This document shows, in pieces, positions 1,011 through 58,403 of a DNA stretch of 64,000 bases. Positions within the stretch are counted from its first letter, which is position 1; each line of letters opens with the position of its first letter. The DNA is from an uncultured Pseudomonadota bacterium (GTDB lineage Bacteria > Oederibacteriota > Muellerivitia > Muellerivitales > Muellerivitaceae). The translations under genes were made by a program, and so were the position numbers. A model generated the notes under the pieces. The model saw nothing but the letters and a program-made list of their open reading frames with translations. It searched no databases and had not been told where the DNA came from. The stretch lies in NCBI GenBank assembly GCA_963843375.1, contig CAWJKT010000004.1:32001-96000 (forward strand), read 5' to 3'.

Positions 1011-1055
1011 CACCTGTGGCGCGTGCGTGTGCGACGCCAACACGGAGACTGTCCT

Positions 1056-11537: not shown

Positions 11538-11591
11538 GCCCTCGGTTTTCGTTGATTTGTAAGGGCTATCAACCCCTTTTCTCACGGCAGG
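11538..11591 (+). repeat. Degenerate partial junction repeat (A0)
   Basis: GCCCTCG..TCGTTGATTTGTAAGG....TTTCTCACGGCAGG is colinear with the junction consensus up to the anticodon stem. Confidence 0.7.
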
Positions 11592-11606
11592 AATCTTTTT
11601 GGCGAC

Positions 11607-11638
11607 CCCTGCTCTCGGACGGCAGGGTCGGCTCACCG
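11607..11638 (+). repeat. Repeat B copy 1
   Basis: CCCTGCTCTCGGACGGCAGGGTCGGCTCACCG. Confidence 0.9.
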
Positions 11639-11659
11639 GGTCGGGCAGCCTGAGCCTAA

Positions 11660-12340
11660 TTACCTGCGCTTCCTTAATTTCCGACTTTTGTCCCTATGTT
11701 CCTTCGCATCACCTTGCGCGGCGGACCTAGCCGAAGCTGACATCACCGCCTCAGACATTCCAAGTGCTCGGGCAATCAATTCCCGCATCGCGTACAAGCG
11801 CGCCGCTTTCTCCTTCTGCGTCCAATTGAAAATCCCTTCTCCAAACAGAAAAAGAGATCCGGCCATGATGAATTGCACCGTCGAAAGCGCGTCCTTCACG
11901 TTGAAGACTCCTGCCTCTCGACCTTCCTCAACGATTCCAGCAAAAATCGGCCCCAGCACACGCACGGTTTCCACGTTGCTCCGATCATGCAACTCGCGAT
12001 TGACAGATGAGTGCAGATCCTCCACCACGCCCGCATTGCTATTCGCTAAACGCGAAAGCTCCGCAAAGATAGACTGGAACTTTTCGACCGGTCCCAGCTT
12101 TTGATCGCTGGCAATCGAACGAGACCGTTCTGCCATCGCTTCTACCAACTGCGTGGCGAGCGCTTCAAGGACCGCCTCCTTGGTGCGAAAGTAGTAATAG
12201 AACGTCCCCTTCGCGACTCCAGCCTCACGTACTATCTCTTCGACAGAGGTGTTCGAGTAACCAAGACGGCGAAAGAGCATATTTGCGATTTCCAGAATTT
12301 CGGCCCGCCGCACCGCTGGAGCTTTGACCGTTCTGCTCAT
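11660..12340 (-). CDS. TetR/AcrR-family regulator
   Basis: GYSNTSVEEIVREAGVAKGTFYYYF. Confidence 0.92.
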   Translation of the reverse strand: MSRTVKAPAVRRAEILEIANMLFRRLGYSNTSVEEIVREAGVAKGTFYYYFRTKEAVLEALATQLVEAMAERSRSIASDQKLGPVEKFQSIFAELSRLANSNAGVVEDLHSSVNRELHDRSNVETVRVLGPIFAGIVEEGREAGVFNVKDALSTVQFIMAGSLFLFGEGIFNWTQKEKAARLYAMRELIARALGMSEAVMSASARSAAQGDAKEHRDKSRKLRKRR

Positions 12341-12343
12341 GGC

Positions 12344-13210
12344 CTAGCGAGTTCCCGAGAGCCGAGGAGGATTCGCCGTATGCAGGCTCGAAGTCTCGGA
12401 GAAAAACAGTTGGCGATTCTTCATGACGACGACTGCTGCGACGATGATCAAAATGCCTGTCTGAATTAGCTTAGTGCGAGGATGAGGAGAAAACAGCTCG
12501 TTGAAGAACCCGGAGGTCACGTGAAACAGTGCCGCAATCCATATGTTCCTTGCGGCCCGGGTGTAAAGCCAATTCATCAGAAAGACGACGGGAAAAATGC
12601 TGACCGGGAAGTTAACCAGCTCCCAAATTCCGGTCTTCATCAAATTGCTATGGTAGTAGCCATCGACCAGCACTAAGGGTGCATGCCAGATACCCCAAAA
12701 CGTGGAGAAAATTATGCAGGTGGCAAAGAGAGTGAACCGGCGGCGGAGAGTATCGGTGCCGTAGGTATGCCAGGCCATCTCCTCGATGACGGGTACGACG
12801 AGCAGAACTGCCCATGTCGACACCACTCCCGAAGTAAAGGACGGCGTAGTCGCGATGCGAAACTGCGAAGCGTCGTAACCAAAGAGTAGCGAGATAAAGA
12901 TGGCGAGTAGGATACTTGCCGGCATGAGCCCCAGAGCCAATAGCCAATACACCGGCTTTGCGGCAGAGATATTGCGGAGACGGCGGCAACAGTCAGACCT
13001 GAGATGCCGATCTGCACCTATCATGGTGAAGGCCACGAACATCGGCGCAACGATTCCGAGAAGTCCGAAAAGACTCAATAGAGCCGCGAGCCGCGGCGAA
13101 GGCGCCACCCGATGACTGATCCATATGGCCCCGAGCCAAAAGGCCCAAGGAATGGCGGTGGATAGGCCATAAAAGAGCCACGGTCGACGGTAATGATCCA
13201 AAGGAGCCAT
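12344..13210 (-). CDS. CPBP (CAAX/Abi) intramembrane metalloprotease
   Basis: IEEMAW, WGIWHAP, ALFH motifs; multiple TM segments. Confidence 0.88.
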   Translation of the reverse strand: MAPLDHYRRPWLFYGLSTAIPWAFWLGAIWISHRVAPSPRLAALLSLFGLLGIVAPMFVAFTMIGADRHLRSDCCRRLRNISAAKPVYWLLALGLMPASILLAIFISLLFGYDASQFRIATTPSFTSGVVSTWAVLLVVPVIEEMAWHTYGTDTLRRRFTLFATCIIFSTFWGIWHAPLVLVDGYYHSNLMKTGIWELVNFPVSIFPVVFLMNWLYTRAARNIWIAALFHVTSGFFNELFSPHPRTKLIQTGILIIVAAVVVMKNRQLFFSETSSLHTANPPRLSGTR

Positions 13211-13257
13211 CTGTGAACGTCATAAGCATGGCGCTACGGCCAGCAGCCACCCTATCA

Positions 13258-13274
13258 ACTGACCGACGGTCAGT
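13258..13274. promoter_or_regulatory. Putative TetR operator
   Basis: Palindrome ACTGACCG-A-CGGTCAGT upstream of the CPBP-tetR operon. Confidence 0.65.
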
Positions 13275-13392
13275 CAATTCTGCGGCGCGATTGGATGATT
13301 ATTTGCAATGCCAGGAGTGGGCCGGCGATTAACCATTCGGTCTCACCGCATTGACTTCCCGGGCGCTATCCAGGCGGGCGCAGTCGATAAAG

Positions 13393-13935
13393 TTACTTGT
13401 ATGGCTGCCCGATCATCAGGCTAGGGTGATAGGGATCAATTGAAACCGAACCCGCTTCGAGATCGAGTTCAAGAATGTAATGAGACCCCGACTTTGCATT
13501 GAAGGCACCTATTTTTCTCCAGGTCGTTCCTTCCTCGTTCGCATTGCGCGCCCAGTCCCACGCACCAGCGGGCGCAGATCCGGTGTCGACCAGCCGACCC
13601 GACTGCCGCAATTTCCATTTGACTGCGCCGAGCGGGGGCGCTGCGGCTCTGCAGCGTTCGGCCGTCACGGGCGCTGAGGTGAGAGCCAAGCAGGTCGAAC
13701 CGTCTAATCGCCGGGTCCCTACACCGATCATGATTCGATAATCTTGCGTATCTGGAATTTGAAATTCGCGAGTCTGAAAATATCCGGTAGACGGCGACAG
13801 CGGTACCTGAAATGGTGCATAGAAGCGACGTTCTTGATACGTCATGGCGGCGGTCACGGCTGCGATGGCAGCCACGGCGATGAGGGCGCGTGTGATAGGG
13901 GTCTTATGGTTCAGGGCCCGGTCAATTAATGACAT
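13393..13935 (-). CDS. Hypothetical exported/membrane-anchored protein
   Basis: 180-aa ORF with N-terminal hydrophobic helix. Confidence 0.6.
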   Translation of the reverse strand: MSLIDRALNHKTPITRALIAVAAIAAVTAAMTYQERRFYAPFQVPLSPSTGYFQTREFQIPDTQDYRIMIGVGTRRLDGSTCLALTSAPVTAERCRAAAPPLGAVKWKLRQSGRLVDTGSAPAGAWDWARNANEEGTTWRKIGAFNAKSGSHYILELDLEAGSVSIDPYHPSLMIGQPYK

Positions 13936-14088
13936 GCGATGTGTGCCTCTTAGGACGCCATCCAGGTGACGAAGTTTGGGTCAAAATTGCTCGTTGTCTA
14001 AGTGCTGACGGGCGTCATGGCCGTCTCCGTCCGAGATGCTCGCTCTTGCCTGTCATTGATCAGGCACGGTCAGTCGACGTTGACGGGA

Positions 14089-14508
14089 CTAAAAGCACGC
14101 ACCCGCAAGTCCGCAACCTGCCGCAAGCAGCGCGAATGGGCATAGGCACGAGATCACCATGCCGCTGGCGAAGGAGAGCCAACGACCCGCCCGGGCGTTG
14201 ATCACGAAATGTCGTGATATCTGTGCGACCGCAGCGCAGGCAAGAAAGGGCCAGACAAGGAAACCTAGGAGCAGGATAGATCCCCGATACGCGAGAAACC
14301 GCTGTAAGGCAGATTCCGGCGGACCTCCGGTCCGAACAAGCGCATAAACCAAAAGACCGACGCAAACTAATGTGAGGATCGCAGCGATCAGGAGCACGCC
14401 GCCGTGCAGCCGTCGTCGAGCAGCCCACTGTGCCAGTACCCAGAGGACGCCGGCGCTGGCCGCCACCCAAACTGTATAGAACCAAGCAAGCTGCGTCAGG
14501 CTGGTCAT
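14089..14508 (-). CDS. Hypothetical membrane protein
   Basis: About four TM segments. Confidence 0.6.
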   Translation of the reverse strand: MTSLTQLAWFYTVWVAASAGVLWVLAQWAARRRLHGGVLLIAAILTLVCVGLLVYALVRTGGPPESALQRFLAYRGSILLLGFLVWPFLACAAVAQISRHFVINARAGRWLSFASGMVISCLCPFALLAAGCGLAGACF

Positions 14509-14690
14509 CGTTAGGAGGCCAGATCTGTCCGTATCAACGATCTGTTTGGTGCCGGTTCAAATTGGCGATCGGTGCTGCTATTCTACTAATTAGAACATCG
14601 ATTCTGTTTTCTCGTCAAGATGTGTGATGGGTGATTACCCATGATTGATCCCCTGCCGCTTTTTCCACCAATGCAACACCTGCGGTCAAC

Positions 14691-14990
14691 GTGCGAACTC
14701 TCTCCATAGCATCGATGTCGTTGACGATCTTGATCGCGACCGGGTCAATCGCGGCGAGCGTGACCAGCGTCAAAACGGAGCCTTCTGGGACTTTCAACAG
14801 AAAGACGCAGTATAGAGTCGAGTGCGCGGCTGAGGATGAAACGAGGGCTCCGTGCAAGGCTGCACTCACGAATACGTGCCCCAATGGACACACGATGACC
14901 GGTTATGACGACCAAGTGGTACTAACCGGTCCCCCGAATGGTCCGTATAAGGTCGCCCCGCGATATCTTTACTTCGTCTGCACGCGGTAG
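14691..14990 (+). CDS. Small secreted Cys-containing protein
   Basis: Signal peptide-like N-terminus, four Cys. Confidence 0.55.
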   Translation: MRTLSIASMSLTILIATGSIAASVTSVKTEPSGTFNRKTQYRVECAAEDETRAPCKAALTNTCPNGHTMTGYDDQVVLTGPPNGPYKVAPRYLYFVCTR

Positions 14991-15179
14991 CTGGTCCGCC
15001 GACCGAAAAAGGCGCTCAGCGATGGAAGATACCTGGCGGGAGAAGCGGTGATTGAGGTCATACGACTTGCTGATCCGGCGCGGACGCAGACGTTACTTGC
15101 GCCGAATCGCCGCTTGTCGTGTGAGGTTCCTGAAGTGGCAATTGACCACCGACGACGGAACAGTTGGTAGGGGAATAGA

Positions 15180-15863
15180 ATGGCGATGACGCAGCAAGCG
15201 CGGCTTATATTTCTGGTGCTGATGCTGGGTCCCCCTACGCAGGCCACATTCGCACAAGGCAATTCGGCATTCGCCAGAGTGGTTTCTGATCCTCGCGAAC
15301 AAGAGATGGTTATTAGCGCCGCTAAACGCTCGAACGTTGTCGTCGAGAGTCCGTGCGATGATGCACATTACAGCATCGCCAATCAGTTCTCGATCTTCGA
15401 GCCGCTCATGTTTGACGACGCTGGGACTCTGCGCTCCGGTATTTGGAAGCAGGTGATCAATTATGCAGGTTGCGGAGCTACGCGAATTTTGAACGTACTG
15501 GTGTCGGTAGCAGCTGGATCGCGTCCGAATGCCCGTCCATTGTTGCCGGGCACTACGCACGCCGACCCCCAATTGCAGATCGACGTGTTCAGATCGCCAG
15601 CCATGCAGATACAAATACAGCGCTGGCGCGACCCCACTTGTACCAAGGTCTACGTCGCGGACACCGCGTTCGTGAATCGGGAGGCCGAAACTCTTCCGGG
15701 AGCAAAAGAATCGAGCTGGCGCGAGGTGTGGACCGTGGCTGCGTGCGATCGCAAGGAATCCATGCCGGTAACTTTTGCGCCTGATTCGACTGGCTCGTCC
15801 TTTACGCTAACGCCAGGCTCGACGGACCAGGATAAGCCTGGCAACTCTGTAGGTCGGCCCTAA
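15180..15863 (+). CDS. Hypothetical secreted protein
   Basis: Signal peptide; internally repeated W(K/R)(Q/E)V...C motif. Confidence 0.65.
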   Translation: MAMTQQARLIFLVLMLGPPTQATFAQGNSAFARVVSDPREQEMVISAAKRSNVVVESPCDDAHYSIANQFSIFEPLMFDDAGTLRSGIWKQVINYAGCGATRILNVLVSVAAGSRPNARPLLPGTTHADPQLQIDVFRSPAMQIQIQRWRDPTCTKVYVADTAFVNREAETLPGAKESSWREVWTVAACDRKESMPVTFAPDSTGSSFTLTPGSTDQDKPGNSVGRP

Positions 15864-15924
15864 CAAGGGATCTACTGCTTTTCTGAAGGCGGACGCTGGC
15901 GACTGGGGTCACGGTCTATGTCGT

Positions 15925-16096
15925 TGGGACAATCTGGGACAGTCAGCCCATGACGCCAAATGACATCGAATGACATCCCGTGACGCCAAGTGACTGTTGC
16001 GCTTGGCCCTACGCCTCGCATATGGTTGATCTGTAAGGCCCTGACCACCGTTTCACACGGCAGGGGTCACAGGTTCAAGCCCTGTACCGCCCACCA
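15925..16096 (+). repeat. Junction repeat A1 (att-like; tRNA core 16051-16096)
   Basis: TGGGACAATCTGGGACAG + 5 TGAC at 10-bp spacing + exact copy of 865-910. Confidence 0.97.
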
Positions 16097-16370
16097 TCCA
16101 ACACTTTGAAAACAAATGGTTTTCCGCGTTTGTGGGCCAAAACCTTGAACCCAGAAACAGGGATTTGCGAGAATTCCAAGGTCAACCACGTACCGCAACT
16201 CTCTGGTAGGTGCTTCGGCATTCGAGCACGTCCCACTACTCCCGACGGGATTCGGTTCGCGATCCTCAGGACACTCCTGGCAGGTGAACTCCCGCCAAAA
16301 CAGGCGATCACGCGAACACTCTCACCGAAAGAAGTTGCCTTTCATTCTCCTCGATGCATACTGAATGCAT

Positions 16371-16646
16371 ATGGAGATCGAGTGGGATGCAGCCAAGGCA
16401 GCCACCAACTTTACGAAGCATGGCGTCCGCTTCGAGGAAGCCGCAACTACACTCCTTGACCCAATGGCACTCGCCCAAGAAGACACGATCTCTCGAGGCG
16501 AGGCCCGCTGGATACTGATCGGCATGAGCGCCAGCACGCGATTGTTGACCGTCGTTTACACATTGCGGAAAGAGGACACGATTCGTCTCATCTCCGCCCG
16601 TAAGACCACACGCAAAGAGGCCGCTGACTATGCGCAAGCAGTATGA
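16371..16646 (+). CDS. brnT: BrnT-family toxin
   Basis: MEIEWDAAKAATNFTKHGVRFEEA...IRLISARK. Confidence 0.92.
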   Translation: MEIEWDAAKAATNFTKHGVRFEEAATTLLDPMALAQEDTISRGEARWILIGMSASTRLLTVVYTLRKEDTIRLISARKTTRKEAADYAQAV

Positions 16647-16896
16647 TTTCTCGAAGGCGAAGCGCGCCAAGGATGTCCCACACCTCGCGCGCCTCCAGGC
16701 ACAGGCCAAGGGTAAGACCCGCATCACCATCATGCTGGACAACGACCTGCTGATGACTTTTCGCGCCAAGGCGGAATCAGAGGGAACGGGATACCAGACA
16801 CTAATCAATCAGGCATTGCGTCGGGCTACCGGACCTGACTCGGTGGATGAGGCAACCTTGCGCCGTATTCTCCGCGAGGAATTAAAGGCTGGCTGA
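16630..16896 (+). CDS. brnA: BrnA-family antitoxin
   Basis: YDFSKAKR...ITIMLDND...GYQTLINQALR. Confidence 0.9.
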   Translation: MRKQYDFSKAKRAKDVPHLARLQAQAKGKTRITIMLDNDLLMTFRAKAESEGTGYQTLINQALRRATGPDSVDEATLRRILREELKAG

Positions 16897-17093
16897 GTCA
16901 GTGCGCCATCGATACGCCCGGTGCTTTGTGATGGCCGCTTGCCTCGGGGCGGCCCCGATAATCCAAAGTGGACATGGAGCGGGTAATGACGACTCGCGAC
17001 TCGTCGAGATGAAACCTGAGTAGCTGGCGCCTGCGAGTCAGAAACGTACCTTGGCATGCCATAACTTTCACACAGCCGGAATCGGTTTACGAC

Positions 17094-17126
17094 CCCTGCT
17101 CTCGGACGGCAGGGGCGGCCCAACCG
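17094..17126 (+). repeat. Repeat B copy 2
   Basis: CCCTGCTCTCGGACGGCAGGGGCGGCCCAACCG. Confidence 0.9.
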
Positions 17127-17224
17127 AGAAACTTGCGATTGTTACTGGCGCTCGGAAAGAATAGCCTCAACCCGTCACTCAGACAGTCACAATTGATTCC
17201 ACGCGCAGGTCATTCAAGGATCGC

Positions 17225-17728
17225 ATGAAGTCGCTTCTGGCAATCGGACTGGCGGTGCTCGCCTCAGGAGCTCAGGTCAGCCTAGCGACGACTCCCGAGT
17301 GCGAGGGCTCGCCGTTCACTCTGCAGGGTCAGTACTTAGAAATCGTGAAAAGCGCCGTCGCGCAATCCCCGATCGCATTTCAGCGCGAAGTAGTCGCCGT
17401 AGATCCACCAATTCCGAGTGCAGCCACACCTCTGCCGAGCGTCATGCAGTGGTCAAAATTTGCAGTTGATCAGAACATTTCCTTTAGAGTGCTGCGTCAG
17501 TGGAAGGGACCATATCACGTCGGTGAAGTCGTAAATCTCACTGTTAGAGTCGCGCAAGTGTGTGGTGGCATTCCTTGCATACCTACATTTAAGATTGGCG
17601 ATGTCACGCTTTTGCTATCTCTCAAATCTTTGCCAAGTTATTCTGAAGGCTGCTGGGTGTACGAAGGTGTGGCGATTAACAGCGTGCTATCAGTGCCCAC
17701 GGCTCTGACATCCGGAAGCCGCCACTGA
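17225..17728 (+). CDS. Hypothetical secreted protein
   Basis: Signal peptide, AAGGA RBS. Confidence 0.65.
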   Translation: MKSLLAIGLAVLASGAQVSLATTPECEGSPFTLQGQYLEIVKSAVAQSPIAFQREVVAVDPPIPSAATPLPSVMQWSKFAVDQNISFRVLRQWKGPYHVGEVVNLTVRVAQVCGGIPCIPTFKIGDVTLLLSLKSLPSYSEGCWVYEGVAINSVLSVPTALTSGSRH

Positions 17729-17831
17729 GGGGACGCGGCTTAAGTAGGCTGCCGCCGGAGTTCCACCATACCGTTCTCAACGAATAGTGCTTATCACCAG
17801 TCGCCGCTTGAAGTGAGATTGCCGTAAAGGG

Positions 17832-18758
17832 TTGAGTTTCCACAACGCAGGGACCGCTGCCATGCCGTCACGCTCGATCCAATGGACGCTCCTTCTCTGG
17901 CTCTACGTCATCATCCCTGGGTACGCCGCAGCAATCGAACCTGTCCGTGCTGGACAAGATTCCTTCGTATCACGAGCAATCTTCTTCAATTCGCAGTTGT
18001 GGATCCTAACCGACGCCGGGCTGCTTTCGAGCATCACGGAGGGCGCCGACCAACAAGTCGACGTTCCTCTTCCTGCGCCCGCTCTCGATCTGTGGACTCA
18101 GGATGGCGCACCTGCGGTTCTTACCGGCGTGCGCAACGGTTCATCGTGGACTGTGCGTCAATGGAGTCATGGTGAGTGGAGCGCTACCGCCACCGTTTCA
18201 GTGAATGCAGACAGATTTATCGGCGTTGCTCCCTCACCAGGAGCCGTCACGATCCTTACCTCGAATCGGCTGATCGAAATTGTCGGTGGAAGTCAACGAA
18301 GCCTGGCACTGGTATGGCCCGCCAAGCCACTTGGTGCAGTCACGTCCGTCGCAGCAATCCGCGGCAGCCTGCTCGTTGGATTCAATGCGGGTGAGTGGGG
18401 CGGTGGTTTGAGGCGGATTGGCAGACCAAACAATCAGATCTCCATTGTCGAAAACAGGAGCGGAGATTCAATCTGCGGTGGACTGTTGAACACAGACTGC
18501 GACCCGGTAAATGGAATCGCCGTTGAACCATGGCAGAAGGATTGTGCGGCGATCACCATTGGCCTTGTTCATTTCATGACCCGCGGCGGCATCGTTGAGG
18601 TTTGCGGAGATACGGTGAAGCGCCTGTACAGCCGCTCGTCCGGGGGCGACCGGATCTCCACCGTACCGTTCTTCGGAATCGTGACAGCGAATTCCAATCT
18701 CGCGGCCGTGGGTGCCGATGGCATTTATAAGGTCGCGCCTGACGGCGTTGAAAAGTGA
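17832..18758 (+). CDS. Hypothetical secreted beta-rich protein
   Basis: Signal peptide, GFNAGEWGGGL motif; may be truncated at the 3' end. Confidence 0.65.
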   Translation: MSFHNAGTAAMPSRSIQWTLLLWLYVIIPGYAAAIEPVRAGQDSFVSRAIFFNSQLWILTDAGLLSSITEGADQQVDVPLPAPALDLWTQDGAPAVLTGVRNGSSWTVRQWSHGEWSATATVSVNADRFIGVAPSPGAVTILTSNRLIEIVGGSQRSLALVWPAKPLGAVTSVAAIRGSLLVGFNAGEWGGGLRRIGRPNNQISIVENRSGDSICGGLLNTDCDPVNGIAVEPWQKDCAAITIGLVHFMTRGGIVEVCGDTVKRLYSRSSGGDRISTVPFFGIVTANSNLAAVGADGIYKVAPDGVEK

Positions 18759-18964
18759 GTCCACTTCCCCAGTTTCAGCGAATTGGGCACGTGTCAGTAA
18801 GCTTCGCGGTACCTCACGTGGTTTTGCTCCTGACTGACGTCAATCAGCGGCGTAGTGTCAGCGGCAGCGTCCCAATGATTGTGGCCAGGTAAAGCGCGCG
18901 TCTTCGTCGCAGCAGAGCCGACGTTCTTAGCCGATGATTTTGGTTCAAGAGCCATCTTTGTCGC

Positions 18965-19135
18965 TGGGACAATTTGGGACAGTCAGCTCGTGACGCCGAA
19001 TGACATCGAATTACATCGCGTGACGCCAAGTGACTGTTGCGCTTGGCCCACGCCTCGCATATGGTTGATCTGTAAGGCCCCGACCACCGTTTCACACGGC
19101 AGGGGTCACAGGTTCAAGCCCTGTACCGCCCACCA
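18965..19135 (+). repeat. Junction repeat A2 (core 19090-19135)
   Basis: Same structure as A1; exact 46-bp tRNA core. Confidence 0.97.
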
Positions 19136-19426
19136 TAAAAAATCCCTTGATTGTCAGGTAATTGCCGCGCAATTGGGGCAGCATAGGCCCGCCTCGGTTT
19201 TGGCCGTACGGACACCAGTACGAATTTTTTCGGGCAATTCGTAGAGTTCCGCGCCCCAAAATTGAGCGAGCCAGTGGCGCCAATGCGGACGCGCTCACCG
19301 TCCCCACGGGGACCCATGAACTCGCGCGCACGTCCCTGCCTAGAGATCGATCGATTCGGTTTCGATTCTCGCGCAAGCGAGAAGCCCGCCCAGAGGCGAC
19401 CCGAGGGGCGAAATTAGTTCGCCAAT

Positions 19427-20617: not shown

Positions 20618-20822
20618 GGGGCGATATTATGCATCTATTACGGAGTTTACAAGAAAACCCTAAACTCACTAATATCCGTACCTTCGACTACCGAGCGTAA
20701 CCTACGTCTTCTCTGTTGCGCATAGTAGTTAAACGGGCGCCCCGGCGTGCAGGCGGCGCCCGATGCAGACGGGCGCAAAACCGAGATCCTTATCAGTTAC
20801 TGCTCATTATGGTTTGCCTCGG

Positions 20823-20993
20823 TGGGACAATCTGGGACAGCCAGCCGATGACGCCAAATGACCTAGAATTACGTCGCGTGACGCTAAGTGACTGTTGCTC
20901 TTGGCACTCCCCTCGCATATCGTTGATTGGTAACGCCCTGACCACCGTTTCACACGGCAGGGGTCACAGGTTCAAGCCCTGTACCGCCCACCA
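20823..20993 (+). repeat. Junction repeat A3 (core 20948-20993)
   Basis: Same structure; exact core. Confidence 0.97.
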
Positions 20994-21119
20994 TAGATTC
21001 AAGCGCTTATAGGCGCTTCTTCATAGCTCTTCACGCTCTTCGATCGAATTTGGGACAGTCTGCCGCACATGCCGCAGACGATTCGAACGGCCATGGACAG
21101 TCGCAAGGGATGATGGGCA

Positions 21120-21530: not shown

Positions 21531-22946
21531 CCCCAAGCGACGCCGCAGGTTGGTGAACACCGTCGAGTCCGGTGGGACGGGCATCATGGAGCTGTCGCGC
21601 TCGAACTGCGCAATGAGGGCCTCAACCATTTCACGCCCATCAGCGTTTCCAACCGCCTCGAGCGGCGTTTTGTTATTGAGGGCTGGCAATGCCACCTCCG
21701 GCCAGTTCTCATAGTGACGACGTTGGAGTTGCTCAAGCTTTGCGCGCACCTCGGGCTGCTTAAGAAGCTCTTCCTGTTCGGCATTACGGGGCGTGAATCC
21801 GGCGCCAGCCCCAGGGAGGCTTGCCGCGCGCGTGACATCGACGGGGTGCTTGCGCGTTCTCAAATAGCGCGCTTTCAAACCGGAAGTTTTCTCCAGTAGC
21901 TTGCGGAACGTGCTCGCACGGGCCGCGGAATTGACCTCCACTTTCAGTTTACCCTCCACAATGTGAAGTTGTCCGAGCACGACTGTTTCAAGTTCGTGCT
22001 TCGGATGGTTGTGCCGGATCCAGGGGATCTGCGCCTCGATCACGGCACCCTTGGCACTGAACTTCGCTTCCGCCAGAAGTTCCTCGCGGGTGCTGCCAAG
22101 CGCGAGGGAACTGAGTGCATCGAAGGCCGCTTGCGCGGAATCGATCTCGAAGTACAGCGTGCGCGGCTCGATCGGTTCACCATCGGTGTTGTGGAGCTTG
22201 GGCAGCGGTGGATTGAGGTAGGCGTCCGCGAGAGAGAAGTACAACGTGCGTAGCGCGAGGTCGCTCGAGTGCTCGAGCTCCGGACGGGTGCGGACCTGGA
22301 TTAGGTGGATCTTGTAGCTCGGGGGAAAACTGAAAGGGGCAAGACCCTCGACCATCGCGATCCCGGAGAGCGCTACGATCTGCCCGAAAATGATGTCGCC
22401 CCGGGCGAGTGTGGCTGAAGCCGAGCGTTCACGCACGTTGAACTTGGCGCAGGTCAGGACGTCTCGCGTGGTGAAGCCCACTCCGGGTTCGCATTCGCAG
22501 ATCTCATGGAAGCCAAAGGGTGCTATGAGGCAGGCTTCGAGATAGCGCTGCAGCAGTGGATGAAGGCGCCCGGCTCTGCGGTCGAGATAGGCGCGCGAGG
22601 GCGGGACAGCGTAGAGCGTCGCGTCGGAGATGACGTTGCCTTTGAGCTTCTGCGGCGACCAGACGTGGAAGAGCCATGCGAAGAAAAGCTCGGCGTTGGG
22701 CTCGCTTTGGACGAACTCCTCGCTCTTGCCCATCGTGAATTCGAACCATGCCTGCTGGATGGCGTCCACGCCGTAGCACTTCGCGATGAAGTGCAGCATG
22801 TCGCCCGCGTAGCCGTCGATGGCCGCGCGTACGCGTCGCCAGGTCTGTTCGCCGAGTTCGGCCACCGTGGCCGACTCTGAGAGACAACAATACTTGTACT
22901 TCTTGCCGCTGCCGCAAGGGCACGCATCGTTGCGTCCGGGCTTCAT
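21525..22946 (-). CDS. SEC-C motif protein
   Basis: MKPGRNDACPCGSGKKYKYCC; C-terminal WPEVALPALNNKTPLEA. Confidence 0.85.
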   Translation of the reverse strand: MKPGRNDACPCGSGKKYKYCCLSESATVAELGEQTWRRVRAAIDGYAGDMLHFIAKCYGVDAIQQAWFEFTMGKSEEFVQSEPNAELFFAWLFHVWSPQKLKGNVISDATLYAVPPSRAYLDRRAGRLHPLLQRYLEACLIAPFGFHEICECEPGVGFTTRDVLTCAKFNVRERSASATLARGDIIFGQIVALSGIAMVEGLAPFSFPPSYKIHLIQVRTRPELEHSSDLALRTLYFSLADAYLNPPLPKLHNTDGEPIEPRTLYFEIDSAQAAFDALSSLALGSTREELLAEAKFSAKGAVIEAQIPWIRHNHPKHELETVVLGQLHIVEGKLKVEVNSAARASTFRKLLEKTSGLKARYLRTRKHPVDVTRAASLPGAGAGFTPRNAEQEELLKQPEVRAKLEQLQRRHYENWPEVALPALNNKTPLEAVGNADGREMVEALIAQFERDSSMMPVPPDSTVFTNLRRRLGL

Positions 22947-23098
22947 GAGGGCATTGTGGCACGAGCAGCGGGCTTGGCGCGCGCAGCTCGCGCGGTGCGC
23001 AATGCGCCACAGAGCATGCCCGCCTTCGACCTCAGGGTTTGTGAGGGCGTTCCCGCCGAGTGATTGACAGCCACTGGGCAACTGGTAATACTATTGGT

Positions 23099-23335
23099 AT
23101 GAAAGTCGCCGTCTCCATACCCGACGAAGTCTTCAGCGAAGCCGAGGATCTGGCGAAACGGCTAAAGGCTTCGCGCAGCGAGATCTACAGCCGTGCACTC
23201 GGTGAGTTTCTGGGCCGGCATGCGCCCGATCGCGTGACGGCCGCCATGAACAACGTCATCGCCAACGTCGGCGAGAAATCCGAGGCCTTCAACCGGCGCG
23301 CGGCGCGCGGTGTGCTGCGGAAGGTGGAGTGGTAA
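23099..23335 (+). CDS. RHH antitoxin
   Basis: MKVAVSIPDEVF...SRSEIYSRAL; coupled to the toxin. Confidence 0.85.
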   Translation: MKVAVSIPDEVFSEAEDLAKRLKASRSEIYSRALGEFLGRHAPDRVTAAMNNVIANVGEKSEAFNRRAARGVLRKVEW

Positions 23336-23673
23336 TCGAACAGGCGGAAGTTTGGTGGGCCGACCTCGATGAGCCCACTGGGTCCGAACCCGGATACCGC
23401 CGGCCCGTCGTCGTCGTCCAGGGCAACGCGCTTAACCGCAGTCGCATCGGCACCGCCGTGTGCGTTCCGCTGACCAGTAATCTCAGATGGGCCGATGCCC
23501 CCGGCAACGTCCTGTTGCCAAGTCACGAAACGGGGTTAGCGCAGGACTCGGTCGCAAACGTGTCGCTGATCGTCGCCCTGGACAAGCAGCAGCTCACCGA
23601 GCGCGTGCGCAAGATCCCACGCCGCCGATTTGAACTCATTCTCGCGGGAATCGATACGATCCTCGGGCGGTAG
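23329..23673 (+). CDS. mazF: PemK/MazF-family toxin
   Basis: GSEPGYRRPVVVVQ, VPLTSN, GLAQDSVAN. Confidence 0.92.
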   Translation: MVIEQAEVWWADLDEPTGSEPGYRRPVVVVQGNALNRSRIGTAVCVPLTSNLRWADAPGNVLLPSHETGLAQDSVANVSLIVALDKQQLTERVRKIPRRRFELILAGIDTILGR

Positions 23674-23679
23674 GCCGCC

Positions 23680-23844
23680 ATGAAAGCGAAAACGCGAGCT
23701 AAGTCGGAGCGACCTCAAAGCTTCACCGAAGGCATTGAACGGGCACTGCGGCGCGCTGCCAGAGATGCGCGCAAGACTGCTCGCATATACGGCACACCCC
23801 TTTACGTTTGGCAGAACGGCAAGGTGGTCGCCAAGAAACCATAA
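23680..23844 (+). CDS. 54-aa basic protein (not in ORF track)
   Basis: MKAKTRAK...YGTPLYVWQNGKVVAKKP; degenerate paralog at 32732-34350. Confidence 0.6.
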   Translation: MKAKTRAKSERPQSFTEGIERALRRAARDARKTARIYGTPLYVWQNGKVVAKKP

Positions 23845-23874
23845 AGACGACCCTACCCGTCACGGTTCGATCGC

Positions 23875-24045
23875 TGGGACAATCTGGGACAGTCAGACCA
23901 TGACGCCAAATGACATCGAATGACATCGCGTGACGCTAAGTGACTGTTGCGCTTGACCCTGCCCTCGCATATCGTTGATCTGTAAGGCCCTGACATCCGT
24001 TTCACACGGCAGGGGTCACAGGTTCAAGCCCTGTACCGCCCACCA
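23875..24045 (+). repeat. Junction repeat A4 (core 24000-24045)
   Basis: Same structure; exact core. Confidence 0.97.
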
Positions 24046-24125
24046 TCTAAAAGCCAGCTAGAACAATCACTTATAGTGTGACCCCGAGCTAGCTGAATTG
24101 GCCTTTCGGAGGGGTTTTGGGACAG

Positions 24126-24161
24126 TACCCAAATCGGGTATGATTCTACCCAATATGGGTA
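24126..24161. promoter_or_regulatory. Tandem palindromic operator candidates
   Basis: TACCCAAATCGGGTA and TACCCAATATGGGTA at the start of the MNT gene. Confidence 0.6.
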
Positions 24162-24781
24162 AGAGCCAAGCCAAGCCCCGCCCCACTGATGGCGCAGCCA
24201 GTCTGGTGGATGCGCTGTTTTCGACAGTAAAGCAGCGCGTGCTGGGGCTGCTATTCGGCCAACCGGATCGCAGCTTCTATACCGGCGAACTCATCCACCT
24301 TGTCGATGCTGGATCCGGAGCGGTGCAGCGTGAGATTGCCCGCTTGGAAAAAAGCGGCCTTATCACCATGCGCCGCGTGGGAACTCAGAAGCACTACCAA
24401 GCGAATCCTGGTTCTCCACTTTTCGAAGAACTGCGAAGCATCACCCGCAAGACGGTGGGGCTTGCCGATCCACTGCGCGTTGCGTTGACCCCGCTGACGA
24501 AGCAGATCTCCGCCGCATTCGTCTATGGGTCAGTTGCAAAGCGTCGCGACGCCGCAGCCAGCGATATCGACTTGATGGTCTTGAGCGATAGCCTTGCGTA
24601 CAGTGAAATCTACAGCCTTCTTGAACCTGTAAGTGAACAACTGGGCCGCACCGTAAATCCGACGGTCTACAGCGCCGCGGATTGGTCCAAGCGCGCGCGA
24701 AACGGGAATGCCTTTGTGAGCCGAGTGCTGGCGCAACCCAAGCTATGGATCATCGGGTCCGAGAATGACCTCCCTCCTTGA
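24155..24781 (+). CDS. HTH + minimal nucleotidyltransferase (MNT) antitoxin
   Basis: FVYGSVAK...SDIDLMV; N-terminal wHTH. Confidence 0.85.
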   Translation: MGKSQAKPRPTDGAASLVDALFSTVKQRVLGLLFGQPDRSFYTGELIHLVDAGSGAVQREIARLEKSGLITMRRVGTQKHYQANPGSPLFEELRSITRKTVGLADPLRVALTPLTKQISAAFVYGSVAKRRDAAASDIDLMVLSDSLAYSEIYSLLEPVSEQLGRTVNPTVYSAADWSKRARNGNAFVSRVLAQPKLWIIGSENDLPP

Positions 24782-25187
24782 ACGGCTAACAGGTGCTGGA
24801 AAGCCCTGGGCGGCGGAGCCGCCGGACGCGAAGGAATTCGAGGGGCTCAAGCACTCAGCGCTCGCACGCTTGAAGGATGCGGCGAACCCAGTAAACGCGC
24901 TGGAGAGCCGCTTTGATCTCGCCTACAACGCCGCCCACGGACTGTGTTTGGCCGCACTCCGTCACAAAGGATTTCGGGCGCATCACCGTTACATCGTCTT
25001 TCAGGCGTTGCCACACGCTTTGGGATTAGGTCCGGAGGTCTGGCGCGTGCTCGACAAGAGTCATCAGATCCGCAATCTCGGAGAATATGAAGGCGATCTG
25101 AACATCGATGAGCGGCTTGTTGCCGATCTCATCACCGCGTGCCGTGTCGTCGCCGAAAAGGTCGAAGGTCTCCAACGCCCCCCGTGA
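24765..25187 (+). CDS. HEPN-like partner of MNT
   Basis: RFDLAYNAAH...IRNLGEYEG; overlaps the MNT gene. Confidence 0.75.
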   Translation: MTSLLERLTGAGKPWAAEPPDAKEFEGLKHSALARLKDAANPVNALESRFDLAYNAAHGLCLAALRHKGFRAHHRYIVFQALPHALGLGPEVWRVLDKSHQIRNLGEYEGDLNIDERLVADLITACRVVAEKVEGLQRPP

Positions 25188-25235
25188 CTACTGAACTGAT
25201 CGCATCAGCCCTTCTCCGGTCGACAAGCTAATGTT

Positions 25236-25267
25236 CCCTGCTCTCGGACGGCGGGGGCGGCTCATCC
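25236..25267 (+). repeat. Repeat B copy 3
   Basis: CCCTGCTCTCGGACGGCGGGGGCGGCTCATCC. Confidence 0.88.
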
Positions 25268-25337
25268 AAGGATGCCTCCTTTTCGGTGCTTGCCGGTGCC
25301 TGCTCTGGATATCTTGGCAGATTGCCGGCGATGGGTG

Positions 25338-26228
25338 TCATGGTGCTCTCAGCAGCGTCGGGGTGTTACGCGCACGCATCAGCTGCTCGACGTTCGGCGC
25401 GTTCAAGCCGTCGGACCGGCCTTTGAAATAGGTCCGTTGTGCAAGTTCCGGCGAAAAGTGCTCCGTCTCGGCAAAGCCGGCGGTGCGCAACATGGCCGCC
25501 ATCTCCTCGGGCGTGAAGAAGGTGGCAAAGTGGGCGCCGGTCGCGGTGGAGATTCGCTTGCCTGTCTCGATCATTTCGGGCGACGGCGGGACGAATGTCA
25601 GTACAAGCTCTGAGCCGGGTGCGAGGTGTGCGGCCCAATTCAACGTCGCGTCGATCGCTTCGCGCGTCAAATACTGGGTGACGCCGAGCCAAGACAGGAA
25701 CGCCCTCTCATCGGACCGAAACTTTGCGCCCGCAAGCGCAGTCTCAATCGACGTAGTCTCGAAGTCGCAAGCCGCGAAGCGTAGGTTCTTGGGCGCCTTG
25801 ATCCCGAGTTCGGCAAGGCGCTTACGCTTCCACTCTTGTGCGCGCGCGGTATCCACCTCGAAAACAGTAAGGTTGAGTGGAGTCGCCGCATGCCGAAGCG
25901 CAAAACTGTCGAGGCCGGCGCCGAGAATTACCTATTGCCTGATTCCGCGCTCGCGGGCGGCCTCGAGACAATCTTCCGTATAGCGGCTCCTAAGGGCCCA
26001 TGCGGCCGAGATGGCCTTGTTTCGGGTCGGCACTGGTACTCCAGGCATGGGCCCGCGTACGATGCCCTCGGTGACGCCCAACAATCGCGCGGCGAAATCG
26101 TCCTTGAATACCTTGGGTTCACCGTCCACTAATAGGTGACGGGCGCGCATGAGCGCTGCACCGACCGCCGTCATGTCAACGCCCTCGGGCGGCGACCAAA
26201 TGGGTTGCTCCATGTGCGTGAACATCAA
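25338..26228 (-). pseudogene. Class I SAM methyltransferase (LCM-like) with in-frame TAG at 25932-25934
   Basis: Two same-frame ORFs; RQ*VILGAGLDSFA, SWLGVTQYL. Confidence 0.8.
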
Positions 26229-26271
26229 TAACTGCCCCAGTGAGCCAGCTGCTTCGCCTCGATGCGGGGAC

Positions 26272-26784
26272 TCAGCGCGTGCGCGCGATGACTTCGCGGA
26301 AACGAACCTCCTCCAGGCGCATCAGCGCATTGAGGCCGGGCATCCCCTCGGGGCCGAAGGTTCGCAGGTACGCCGGTAACAGCTGCGGCGTGGTGAACTC
26401 GACGAGCTGCGTTCCTTCGAGCCAAACGTTGATCACTTCGAACTGGCCATTGTCGCAGTGCCCGCTCGGCCAGCCTTCGCGGCGCGCGATTTCGTGGATG
26501 TGTTCCTCGGGCAGTTTGGCCATGAAGAGCCCATGGAAGCCGTTGCGCTCCGGTGCCGACTCCGCGTGCGGCATTTCCGTGTAAGCACCTGGGCCCGGCG
26601 CGTATGTGATGCCCCACGGCTCGAGCGAGATCATGGTGCCACGATCGTCGCCGCAACAAACGAAGAGCGCGCCTTTGTTGAACGGCGGAGATGGAGCCGC
26701 GACGACGATGGCGTCCAAGATCTTTGCCAAGACACGGGCCACGCGCTCGGGATCGTGTGCATTGAATGAAAGGTGATATAGCAT
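26272..26784 (-). CDS. Glyoxalase/VOC-like protein
   Basis: MLYHLSFNAHDPERVA...EVINVWLEG.QLVEF. Confidence 0.6.
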   Translation of the reverse strand: MLYHLSFNAHDPERVARVLAKILDAIVVAAPSPPFNKGALFVCCGDDRGTMISLEPWGITYAPGPGAYTEMPHAESAPERNGFHGLFMAKLPEEHIHEIARREGWPSGHCDNGQFEVINVWLEGTQLVEFTTPQLLPAYLRTFGPEGMPGLNALMRLEEVRFREVIARTR

Positions 26785-26809
26785 CTCTTTCTCCCTGCTC
26801 GTTGCAGCC

Positions 26810-27433
26810 TCAGCGTATCTTCTGCGTCCGGCGGCGGAGGCCTTCGGCGAGCGCCGAGAGAGCCTGCTCGACGACAGCCGAGGCCTCGGCGGCATCCATC
26901 CCCCAGAACGTGCGCAGCATCTGCCACGAGGGAGCCGAATAGAGGACCTGCGCCGCGGCGGCGGCACGGTGCAAGATGCGCGCATCAAGCCCGGGCACGG
27001 CAGCGTCGACGCAGCGGAGCATCATCTTGCGGCGTGCGTCGTTCCCGCGCAGGCGCAGCCGCATACCCTGGCGCGACGACAACATCGCATCCACCATCGC
27101 AGTATTTGCCTCGAATCCGGCAAAGGACCTCTTCATGTTTGCCACGAGCTCAGCAAGCGTCTGCGCGTCGAACGTGCCCGGACCGGAGACGTGCTCCTCG
27201 TGCGACCACCAGAAGGCGTCCTCCAGATCCTCCTTCGTCGCGAAGTTGCGGTAGACCGTCCGCTCTTGTACCCCTGCGGCGTGCGCGACCGCGGCGAACG
27301 TGAGCTCCTTCCCCACGGCCACGAGATCGCTGCATGCGTCGAGAATGCGCTCCCTCGTGTCGGAGCGCTGCTGGTCGCGAAGCGGCGAGTGATAACTGCG
27401 CTTAACGGCGGCCCTAGCGCGCTTCGAATTCAT
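26810..27433 (-). CDS. TetR-family regulator
   Basis: LTFAAVAHAAGVQERTVYRNFATKEDL. Confidence 0.9.
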   Translation of the reverse strand: MNSKRARAAVKRSYHSPLRDQQRSDTRERILDACSDLVAVGKELTFAAVAHAAGVQERTVYRNFATKEDLEDAFWWSHEEHVSGPGTFDAQTLAELVANMKRSFAGFEANTAMVDAMLSSRQGMRLRLRGNDARRKMMLRCVDAAVPGLDARILHRAAAAAQVLYSAPSWQMLRTFWGMDAAEASAVVEQALSALAEGLRRRTQKIR

Positions 27434-27757
27434 GGCAGTAATAATGACATGAATTGGAGTGACAGGCAAGCGTGCGCTGCGTAGTCCTTCGCAGTTCGAG
27501 TGATCGACTGTGACCAACGTCCATTGCTTCTGGCCGAAGGTCGCCGTTTCAGGTCTACCGTTGGAACGACGCAAAGGTTGACTGAGAGTCGACCGGTAGC
27601 AGCCATCCTTGCCATTCGGCCCAGGCCCAACCGAATGACGGATTTCGGAAGACCCATCTGACAGCAGGCCGCCACCTTAAGGCCCGCCACCGAGGTCCTG
27701 GCCCTTTCCCTTCAAACAGTCTATTTAAACCCAACCGTGGTTAGGTTATTATAGTCT

Positions 27758-28006
27758 TTGCCAACGGTTCTTCGCTTCGGCCGTGTTCGAGTCATGATCT
27801 ACACGAACGATCATCGTCCCGCGCATGTCCACGTTTGGGAGGGCTCACGGCAGGCGGTGTTCAATTTGAACTGTCCAAGCGGACCGATCGAACTGCGGGA
27901 GAACTTTGGGTTTTCCTGGCCGGATGTAAACCGCTTGGCCAGATCGCTGAAAGTCCACGTGCAAACGTTGTGTGCAGCCTGGAGGACGATTCATGGCAAT
28001 TACTAA
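27758..28006 (+). CDS. DUF4160-family protein
   Basis: MIYTNDHRPAHVHV. Confidence 0.85.
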   Translation: MPTVLRFGRVRVMIYTNDHRPAHVHVWEGSRQAVFNLNCPSGPIELRENFGFSWPDVNRLARSLKVHVQTLCAAWRTIHGNY

Positions 28007-28406
28007 GGAGCAATTTAAGGCGGCAAACGAGCGCGGTGCGGCGGCGATCAGTCGCGGACCGATTGCGCGAGCGGCTCGCTATGATTCACGACGTGGTCTG
28101 ATCGTGATTACGCTCAACGGCGGTTGCGAGTTTGCCTTCCCGGTGGCGCTGGCCGAAGGGCTGGCAGGCGCGCCCCGATCCAAGTTGACGAAAATCAAGA
28201 TTAGCCCGAACGGGCTAGGTCTGCGTTGGCCGCTGCTGGATGCGGATTTGTATGTGCCAGGGCTCATAGAAGGCGCCTTCGGTTCACATCGGTGGATGCA
28301 ACAGATCGGCAAACTCGGTGGTGCGAGCCGCAGTTCGATCAAGGCGAAAGCTTCTCGCGAAAACGGGAAGCGCGGCGGGCGTCCCAAAGAAGGAGTAGCC
28401 GCTTAG
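27993..28406 (+). CDS. DUF2442-family protein
   Basis: GLRWPLLDADLYVPGL, ASRENGKRGGRP. Confidence 0.85.
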   Translation: MAITKEQFKAANERGAAAISRGPIARAARYDSRRGLIVITLNGGCEFAFPVALAEGLAGAPRSKLTKIKISPNGLGLRWPLLDADLYVPGLIEGAFGSHRWMQQIGKLGGASRSSIKAKASRENGKRGGRPKEGVAA

Positions 28407-28515
28407 CGCATCGATTGGAATGAAACGCGCCCGTATGTCCTGCCCGTCAGCTTTGGAGCCATTTCCCAGCAGCCATAGTGGGTCACAACCGGTCCACGAG
28501 ATTTCGCGGGTCTTC

Positions 28516-28688
28516 TGGGACAATCTGGGACAGTCAGCCCATGACGCCGAATGACACAGAATTACGACGCGTGACGCCAAGTGACTGTTGCGAATGGCCC
28601 GCGCCCCTCGCATATCGTTGATCTGTAAGGCCCTGACAACCGTTTCACACGGCAGGGGTCACAGGTTCAAGCCCGGTACCGCCCACCA
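28516..28688 (+). repeat. Junction repeat A5 (core 28643-28688)
   Basis: Same structure; one core substitution at 28675. Confidence 0.96.
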
Positions 28689-28780
28689 TATCAACCGCTT
28701 ACGGTCTGCGTTGCCGGTGCCTTGCTTCAAGGGTCGTCGCGCTCTTGCTACGATGTGCTACAAGTGCTACCGTCGCGGCC

Positions 28781-29032
28781 ATGAAGAGCAGAGTCATCAC
28801 ACAGCGGGAGCTTCGCAATCAATCCGCAGCTGTGCTTCGCGAGGTGGAAGCGGGCCGAACGATTGTCGTGACACGCAACGGTACGCCCGTCGGGGAATTG
28901 CGGCCGATCCGCAGGCACCGCTTTGTGGCTCGCGCCGCCATTGCTGACGCAGCAGCGCGCGCACCTCGGATTGACGCCGGTCGCTTTCGTGCAGACTTGG
29001 ACGCAGTGATCAATCCGCATGTCGATGACTGA
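28781..29032 (+). CDS. Phd/YefM-family antitoxin
   Basis: ITQRELRNQSAAVLREVEAG.TIVVTRNGTPV. Confidence 0.9.
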   Translation: MKSRVITQRELRNQSAAVLREVEAGRTIVVTRNGTPVGELRPIRRHRFVARAAIADAAARAPRIDAGRFRADLDAVINPHVDD

Positions 29033-29426
29033 ACCGACTCGCGGCGTTCTCGATACTTCAGTCGTGATCGATCACGATGCAATCGATCCCAGTCTGCTAC
29101 CGGACGAATCGGCGATTTCCGCCGTAACACTCGCAGAACTCGCCGCTGGTCCCCACGCTACCGAAAACAAGGATGAACGAGCTCGACGCCAGGACCGATT
29201 GCAGTGGGCTACTGCAACTTGGGATCCGCTGCCATTTGATGCGGAATCGGCTCGCATGTACGGCAGGATGTTCGCGGCTGCGCGAGCCGCAGGCCAGTCA
29301 AGCCGTACGCGCCTTGCAGACTTGCTCATTGCTTCCACAGCCGCTGCCAATGGACTGCCGGTTTACACGCGCAACCCTTCGGATTTTGAGGCGCTGAAGC
29401 GCATCCTGAAGATCATCAGCATCTAG
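29019..29426 (+). CDS. vapC: VapC (PIN) toxin
   Basis: VLDTSVVI, TLAEL, DLLIASTA, YTRNPSDF. Confidence 0.92.
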   Translation: MSMTEPTRGVLDTSVVIDHDAIDPSLLPDESAISAVTLAELAAGPHATENKDERARRQDRLQWATATWDPLPFDAESARMYGRMFAAARAAGQSSRTRLADLLIASTAAANGLPVYTRNPSDFEALKRILKIISI

Positions 29427-29444
29427 AGCGAATCGCCCTCCAAG

Positions 29445-29476
29445 CCCTGCTCTCGGACGGCAGAGTTGGCTCACCG
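29445..29476 (+). repeat. Repeat B copy 4
   Basis: CCCTGCTCTCGGACGGCAGAGTTGGCTCACCG. Confidence 0.88.
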
Positions 29477-58378: not shown

Positions 58379-58403
58379 GTCCATGCCGTAGAACTTCGCT
58401 CTG

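Follow-up and report, generated by a model that had tools for sequence, protein, structure and literature searches.

Repeat B is a short imperfect palindrome that recurs in a genomic island of an uncultured soil bacterium, within the window analyzed here (64,000 nucleotides of contig CAWJKT010000004.1, positions 32,001 to 96,000 of the forward strand, GenBank assembly GCA_963843375.1; coordinates below are those of the window unless stated otherwise). The island occupies about 58 kb at a tRNA-Val(CAC) gene and consists of an element bearing an integrase and a relaxase, followed by integrase-less cassettes that are each closed by an attR-like repeat, A. Four copies of B lie in it, each containing the same 17-mer, CCCTGCTCTCGGACGGC, and each resembling the anticodon-arm region of the tRNA at which the island sits, with one and the same altered set of seven bases at the center. 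This observation is confirmed as real and specific. Its best available interpretation, that B is attB-like, is drawn from sequence and is partly supported, having passed one comparative test. The fuller proposal, in which B would be a core-type integrase site with an overlap of its own, pairing with other copies of B and not with A or the tRNA, is put forward tentatively, as possible rather than probable.

Copies of repeat B

The 17-mer starts at positions 11607, 17094, 25236, and 29445, in all cases exactly and on the plus strand, in agreement with the sequence-only reading that first described it. No further copy appears in the window when up to three mismatches are allowed, and shuffled sequence yields a mean of 0.49 matches, with none of 100 shuffles reaching four. 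Across the whole assembly (4,051,312 bases in 32 contigs) these are the only exact matches, the single two-mismatch match elsewhere being unrelated, and the genome-wide count proposed in that reading confines the copies to the island. A dispersed palindrome of the REP type was considered and rejected, as there are only four copies and a single island holds them all, within 18 kb.

In B1 and B2 the repeat forms the 21-base palindrome CCCTGCT-CTCGGAC-GGCAGGG, while the flank varies in B3 and B4, as had also been described, through their different right arms. The copies are as follows:

11607..11627, plus strand: B1, CCCTGCTCTCGGACGGCAGGG, 11 bases 3' of the decayed repeat A0; a TetR gene (11660-12340, minus strand) converges on it
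17094..17114, plus strand: B2
25236..25256, plus strand: B3 (right arm GGCGGGG)
29445..29465, plus strand: B4 (right arm GGCAGAG)

The left arm, the seven central bases (CTCGGAC in all four), and the first three bases of the right arm are invariant among the window copies; the next bases differ, and most pairs of flanks cannot be aligned. To judge from this comparison, it is the sequence of the center that is kept, more than the stability of a hairpin, and an invariant center amid unrelated surroundings is the pattern that would be expected of mutually recombining sites.

Resemblance to the target tRNA

The presumed model for B lies at the left end of the island:

836..910, plus strand: tRNA-Val(CAC), integration target, called by ARAGORN; its positions of about 22-48 (window 856-882) are the template copied by B

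The anticodon arm of this tRNA reads CTGCT-TTCACAC-GGCAG-GG, just as the sequence-only reading had it. When the 17-base arm of B is compared with all 46 tRNAs of the assembly, a check that had likewise been suggested, the island's tRNA-Val is the nearest, with 3 mismatches, and the other 45 have at least 6. The likeness extends past the anticodon arm: over the 27-base template GAGCACTGCT-TTCACAC-GGCAGGGGTC, copies of B match at 18-20 of the 27 positions and the next best tRNA at 14-16. Only 20 places in the genome reach at least 19 of 27, namely the tRNA itself, the seven A repeats, three copies of B, three other tRNAs, and six other places. Because the A repeats are without the left arm of the tRNA, B is not a worn A and copies the uninterrupted target.

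The copy has been altered in two respects. In B1 and B2 the left arm, GACCCCTGCT, departs from that of the tRNA at two positions, both changed toward the mirror of the right arm, and the left arm of B now agrees at 9 of 10 positions with the mirror of the right arm common to A and the tRNA. The center CTCGGAC, in turn, differs from the TTCACAC of the tRNA and A at three of its seven positions. B is not itself a tRNA gene or pseudogene, since ARAGORN finds only the tRNA at 836-910 and Rfam gives no match in 10800-30700 at E values up to 1, and it does not continue a decayed tRNA 3' half, for which T-arm collinearity scores at chance (z -1.3 to 1.3). A search for similar mimics of other host tRNAs returned scattered single chance matches, under a filter (one mismatch per 8-base arm) too strict to recover B.

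Copies and flanks in other genomes and metagenomes

Beyond this assembly B is scarce. Among 60 other genomes, the 17-mer with up to one mismatch has 10 matches in eight genomes, none palindromic and none in a tRNA, which are chance matches in coding sequence. The 21-mer with up to three mismatches has 37 matches in 98 other genomes of the phylum, against 18 for a reversed control, and seven such matches in five inspected loci have neither likeness in their flanks nor a tRNA nearby. A set of 185,579 species genomes, one for each species, gives three matches in unrelated phyla, about the number due to chance, and none of 20 matches to the 17-mer in IMG/VR completes the palindrome. An 18/21 match in the loci L111-L113 was rejected, being a separate TTCGGACGGC run about 220 bases downstream of a T-tailed hairpin terminator. 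The arm of A was not found in the 98 phylum genomes, where the tRNA part alone matches. The integrase has a best relative in the phylum that is 34% identical, and its relatives in IMG/VR (46-48%) carry neither A nor B.

A scan of metagenomes with the exact motif found four loci, of which two are real (L025 and L026, from one sample) and two are due to chance. L025 starts within an A core, and its sequence is 91% identical to positions 24012-25189 of the window, which encode an MNT-type nucleotidyltransferase and its partner. There follow an intact DUF2442 gene, B, about 55-75 bases like the right flank of B4, and a 543-aa minus-strand open reading frame (ORF) that has no counterpart in this genome. 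L026 holds an A core, a GGGACA word, a DUF2442 gene, a partial A core (TTTCACACGGCCGG), and B, where the contig ends.

The left flanks of these six copies fall into three classes, {B1, B2, L026}, {B3, L025}, and {B4}. On the right side the grouping is another one: B4 resembles both B2 (z 4.1) and L025 (z 6.3), B2 and L025 are no more alike than by chance (z 0.3), and B1 and B3 have no partner. The stretches concerned in the window, which a self-comparison with BLAST also brings together (17079-17149 with 29430-29499, at 73%), are the following:

17115..17149, plus strand: right extension of B2, common to B4 (flank score z 4.1)
29466..29518, plus strand: right extension of B4, common to L025 (77%) and B2

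In 10-base bins from -40 to -1, L025 agrees with B3 at 8-10 of 10 positions and with B4 at chance, while to the right of B, up to +70, it agrees with B4 at 6-8 of 10 and with B3 at chance. L025 therefore has the left flank of B3 and switches at B to the right flank of B4 and to unrelated cargo, which is the break of synteny at B in relatives that the sequence-only reading had named as a check. The switch is not proof of site-specific exchange, since an element kept by selection amid turnover could show the same.

Sequencing runs were searched for the products of such an exchange. Five soil runs hold parts of the island, and contigs were obtained from four of them at low depth; among the joints listed for these four, none joins B to B. 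Within B3 lies the start of one weak joint (25251 to 25359, side 20, depth 2); no product of recombination between B and B or between B and A was seen.

Position of B in the island

The integrase lies directly downstream of tRNA-Val(CAC) and is the only site-specific recombinase found anywhere in the island, 37-58 kb included. The 3' half of the tRNA (TTTCACACGGCAGGGG...CCACCA) is repeated seven more times on the plus strand, at 16051, 19090, 20948, 24000, 28643, 37033, and 58503, in each case behind a common arm of about 140 bases that starts with GGGACAATCTGGGACAG, and these seven make up the full copies of A. With an intact tRNA-Val, seven direct repeats on the plus strand, and an integrase in the first unit only, the island has the make-up of an accretion array; its layout is that of an integrative mobilizable element with att-flanked, integrase-less units behind it. 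Paired GGGACA words stand in every A and beside the integrase gene, int, and GGGACA occurs 30 times on the plus strand versus nine times for TGTCCC.

993..1009 (993 and 1004), plus strand: paired GGGACA words, presumed arm-type integrase sites of the P' side, just 5' of int
1023..2039, plus strand: tyrosine integrase (Pfam PF00589, 3.5e-29; NCBIfam Xer-like matches all below cut-off)
11540..11595, plus strand: A0, decayed A, truncated after TTTCTCACGGCAGG (core-prime, 11578-11591)
15915..16103, plus strand: A1, attR-like, an arm of about 140 bases with GGGACAATCTGGGACAG and the tRNA 3' half
18955..19142, plus strand: A2, no B after it
20813..21000, plus strand: A3, no B after it
23865..24052, plus strand: A4
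28506..28695, plus strand: A5
36898..37085, plus strand: A6
58374..58558, plus strand: A7, the most diverged copy and the last one, presumably at the island's outer end

Between some of these repeats and the B that follows lies a small operon, a partial A core, or the remnant of a gene:

16365..16896, plus strand: BrnT/BrnA toxin-antitoxin pair, between A1 and B2 (Pfam PF04365, 1.2e-26; PF14384, 7.7e-13)
17066..17079, plus strand: core-prime TTTCACACAGCCGG, a second partial A core 14 bases 5' of B2
24098..25187, plus strand: MNT-type nucleotidyltransferase (24098-24781) and 140-aa partner (24765-25187), between A4 and B3 (Pfam PF18765)
25191..25235, plus strand: remnant (last 45 bases) of a DUF2442 gene whose intact form is in L025
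28745..29426, plus strand: Phd-type antitoxin and PIN (VapC-like) toxin, between A5 and B4 (Pfam PF02604, PF01850)

The order is thus A1-BrnT/BrnA-B2, A4-MNT and partner-B3, and A5-Phd and PIN-B4, with B1 behind the decayed A0. The sequence-only reading had three copies of B preceded by BrnTA, MNT-HEPN, and VapBC operons, and three modules of toxin-antitoxin type are indeed placed so, although two of the names do not hold as given. HEPN is a language-model lead only: the 140-aa partner has no Pfam or NCBIfam match, and the protein atlas sets it near clusters named HEPN (0.97). The NCBIfam MntA match of the nucleotidyltransferase is below cut-off. What had been called VapB is an antitoxin of Phd/YefM type, phd_fam being above the NCBIfam cut-off; the VapC models, which concern the PIN toxin, are below theirs. 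The fourth copy does stand behind a degenerate A, which is both decayed and truncated. The proposed unit A-toxin-antitoxin-B-cargo-A is found at three of the seven full copies of A (A1, A4, and A5) and not at the others.

Three of the six copies of B (B1, B2, and L026) have a partial A core, TTTCNCAC.GC.GG, 14-15 bases upstream, which places B at the position of the P' side of an att site. The anatomy of these junctions leads us to infer that B is part of the att site of the integrase-less units, on its P' side.

B as a candidate core-type integrase site

B has several features of a core-type att site, with inverted arms around a center of 6-8 bases, arms like those of the presumed target, and a center that is identical in the window copies. 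In the proposed model, B would have been made from the island's own target, the anticodon-arm region of tRNA-Val(CAC) that is the presumed attB core; its two arms would hold two integrase subunits, and its 7-base center would be an overlap that could be exchanged between copies of B but with neither A nor the tRNA. Williams is said to have described, in Nucleic Acids Res in 2002, a class of integrase that crosses over in the tRNA anticodon loop, and the block of identity between A and the tRNA starts at that loop, which together suggest the loop as the overlap here; binding of the integrase to B and strand exchange at B would be further parts of the model. Tyrosine recombinases generally need identity of the overlap, according to one account (PMC2817482), and the three differences in seven central positions would therefore keep B separate from A.

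In the array B marks the left end of the cargo part in integrase-less cassettes, on the inner side of a partial A core (core-prime) or immediately behind a toxin-antitoxin or DUF2442 module, and it behaves like a joint at which modules on the left and cargo on the right re-assort. Its place on the P' side can be pictured through a circular unit whose att site reads 'arm - TTCACAC - GGCAGG - AATC... - B - cargo'. Integration of such a unit into an A already in place would yield exactly A0-B1 on the left and, on the right, a full A such as A1, and toxin-antitoxin or DUF2442 modules would lie between the full A and the partial core beside B. A further extension, which appears fairly improbable, is a two-tier cassette system in which one integrase serves two non-crossing types of site, A (TTCACAC) and B (CTCGGAC, with the same arms). 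Here A sites would add or remove whole units at the tRNA, and B sites would swap cargo behind toxin-antitoxin 'anchor' modules, leaving the tRNA and the A array untouched.

Several findings weigh against a core-type site. The integrase appears, from the paired GGGACA words, to be arm-dependent, and no arm sites lie beside B; as arm-dependent integrases do not usually join two arm-less cores, an exchange between two copies of B would not be a textbook reaction. The right flank common to L025 and B4 extends over no more than the stated 55-75 bases, so that L025 is not simply the product of B3 and B4 of this array. Only six copies of B are available, from two sources, and two of them were found with the motif itself, so that the identity of their 17-mers is by construction. 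The right arm varies, by A18G in B3 and by G20A in B4 and L026, and the palindrome extends three pairs past a one-base bulge in letters that vary by copy, which suggests a hairpin over sequence-specific arms. Lastly, B has convergent genes on its two sides in three of the five copies with a known right side (B1, B3, and L025), as is usual around a terminator or insulator. The earlier proposal of an attB-like core with an orthogonal overlap accordingly stands as far as confinement to the island, the copying of the tRNA target, the invariant center, and the break of synteny are concerned. The apparent arm dependence of the integrase speaks against it, no recombination product was seen, and a hairpin or a relic would account for part of the same observations.

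Alternative explanations for B

B might instead be a transcription or RNA hairpin (terminator, insulator, or 3'-end stabilizer) that closes the left-end operon against converging cargo, its likeness to the tRNA being a leftover of its origin, which we consider somewhat unlikely. All six copies share the orientation of the gene upstream, and it is a minus-strand gene that converges on B1, B3, and the L025 copy. B1 and B2 fold at -17 to -18.6 kcal/mol, the stem continues beyond the bulge with changed letters, and the change of T-A to T-G in B3 keeps the pair in RNA; over 11 pairs, 87% of the cells are paired, versus 33-55% in slid controls. The covariation of this extended stem is, however, not significant, being reached in 72 of 500 shuffles, and by folding z score B3 (-0.56) and B4 (0.02) do no better than shuffles (B1, -1.6; B2, -1.9). 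No T run follows B at any copy and a terminator scan does not call it, which bears out the earlier statement that these are not typical terminators, and Rfam has no family there. An intrinsic terminator has a T run and a stem that is stable in all copies around a free loop, whereas in B the stems are uneven and the loop, which a terminator does not need, is the best-conserved part. The hairpin also gives no reason why the island's own target tRNA should have been copied. A second hairpin or pseudoknot to the right of B was rejected, there being three sequences only and no support.

Common descent would explain the likeness to the tRNA if B were a functionless relic, a tRNA-Val-like or old att fragment at the left end of one ancestral cassette family, conserved through recent descent or gene conversion. 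The absence of B at three of the seven cassette left ends and in all other genomes searched fits this view, as do the traces of a shared unit in the left flanks of B1, B2, and B4, which keep GAATC and 10-11 bases. A relic is nonetheless unlikely: a 17-mer unchanged in four copies beside flanks that cannot be aligned is hard to account for without selection or an active process, both changes in the left arm raise its symmetry, and A0 has decayed while the adjoining B1 has not. Very improbable, finally, is an RNA look-alike of the anticodon arm in the 3' untranslated part of toxin-antitoxin transcripts, serving as a decoy or cleavage site for RNase toxins (BrnT, PIN, HEPN-like). Three copies do lie behind operons whose toxins are RNases by family, and the PIN protein matches a tRNA(fMet)-specific VapC model in NCBIfam, below cut-off; but three unrelated toxin families would need one common target, and B1 and L026 are behind no such toxin.

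Other features of the island

The integrase is followed by a DUF4160/DUF2442 pair, a MobA/VirD2-type relaxase encoded on the minus strand (3094-4212), a NikA-like gene, an excisionase-like HTH_17 gene (4801-5142), and an AbiE pair. An oriT-like site occupies 4681-4718, upstream of the genes for the NikA-like protein and the relaxase; it consists of an imperfect inverted repeat (GTGTGCCGC...GCGGACAC) and, after a gap of 5 bases, TATCCTGCCA, which we take to be the nick-region word of RP4 oriT and T-DNA borders. The minus strand of B holds CCCTGCC, which resembles this word; a relaxase nick site at B was ruled out, as CCCTGCC falls within the arm that is not constant, being changed in B3, B4, and L026.

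The attR-type repeat that closes the integrase-bearing unit, A0 (11420-11595), is decayed and without the tRNA 3' end, so that this element could leave only together with downstream cassettes, via A1-A7. A low-depth contig from soil run X5 joins 28604, in the arm of A5, to 23962, in the core of A4, as expected for a circle or a tandem copy of the A4-A5 cassette, though 34 bases fit both sides and the joint could be an artefact of assembly. Outside the window, at C4:195405-195481 of the assembly, lies a further tRNA-Val(CAC) gene, 77 bases long and different in sequence, and the island-borne copy may therefore be dispensable or foreign. On IMG/VR contig L123, at about base 5000 of the reverse strand, three GGGACA words stand in a row (GGGACATTTGGGACAATCTGGGACAG) without other likeness to the island, and may represent arm sites of this type in an unrelated element.

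Besides the integrase and relaxase element, the island has a single mobility gene:

33000-34259: IS256-type transposase

The IS256-type element (32730-34416) interrupts a stretch with about 80% likeness to the sequence that immediately precedes A4 (23678-23908). Directly behind the element, a GGGACAATCTGGGACAG word runs without a break into a copy of the P'-side DUF2442 region (34388-34807, resembling 21047-21468), as would result from a deletion of the core between the arm sites.

The cargo itself is varied. The first gene behind B3 (25338-26228) is of the leucine carboxyl methyltransferase type and is split into two ORFs, both with the Pfam LCM domain, so that it is probably a pseudogene. 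Beside B4 is a 78-aa minus-strand ORF that is short and uncertain, and at 29918-30631 is an outer-membrane-like protein with a Gly-Tyr repeat of 12-base period (30362-30457), for which soil run X1 shows a variant at 30413 that differs in length by 6 bases. The final unit, which is also the largest (37085-58503), carries TauE, DsrE, and a SoxA/TsdA-type cytochrome, which point to sulfur handling, together with an RND efflux set and a cytochrome bd oxidase, and has no mobility gene.

Comparison with known systems

The closest parallels to B are the core att sites of integrases that act in the anticodon loop. Like them, B has two inverted arms of anticodon-stem type around a 7-base center and belongs to an island with a tyrosine integrase at the tRNA in question; unlike them, it lies outside the tRNA gene, is present four times inside the island, differs at three of seven central positions, and is more symmetric than its target. 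Sites that differ in their spacer and react only with their own kind are familiar from engineered lox and FRT variants and from the natural Xer sites dif, cer, and psi. B resembles these in having nearly the same arms as A and the tRNA (two of 10 positions changed in the left arm) around another center, which would give two non-crossing sets of sites for one enzyme, although for B this behavior is deduced from its sequence. We know of no natural island in which one integrase has two such sets of sites, a statement made without a dedicated search of the literature.

Integron attC sites are similar to B in being imperfect palindromes with a bulged base at a cassette boundary, in arrays stabilized by toxin-antitoxin genes. 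B, in contrast, has no R''/R' boxes and is conserved at its center rather than its ends, and the cassettes here end in A and not in B. An attC site was rejected, since the integrase scores 23 bits against a cut-off of 265 for integron integrases, and the alignment of B contains no GTTRRRY, the consensus of the attC boxes.

For the A array there are known counterparts. The sections drawn on here of an account of Dehalococcoides ssrA islands (PMC3146451) describe partial copies of the target gene repeated 3' of the intact gene, with units both with and without an integrase, and those of an account of Prochlorococcus tycheposons (bioRxiv 10.1101/2020.12.28.424599) describe the same tandem array of att-flanked, integrase-less units. 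In the present island, as in both of these, the repeats lie downstream of an intact target RNA gene and one unit has an integrase while others have none; unlike the present island, however, only repeats of the 3' end of the target are described in those sections, where a second type of site is not met. Publications on anticodon-loop overlap sites likewise contain no such case by title or abstract, and the search went no wider than these.

Arrays of att-flanked units without integrase are thus known at tRNA genes, and how cargo re-assorts inside them is not. If B is a hairpin or a relic, it is a small curiosity of one soil bacterium in an uncultured phylum. If B is instead the core-type site proposed here, one integrase with two sets of sites separated by their overlaps would be a simple natural way to modular islands. 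The two sets would also be a ready orthogonal pair of sites for genome engineering, with B as the natural counterpart of the engineered spacer-variant lox sites.

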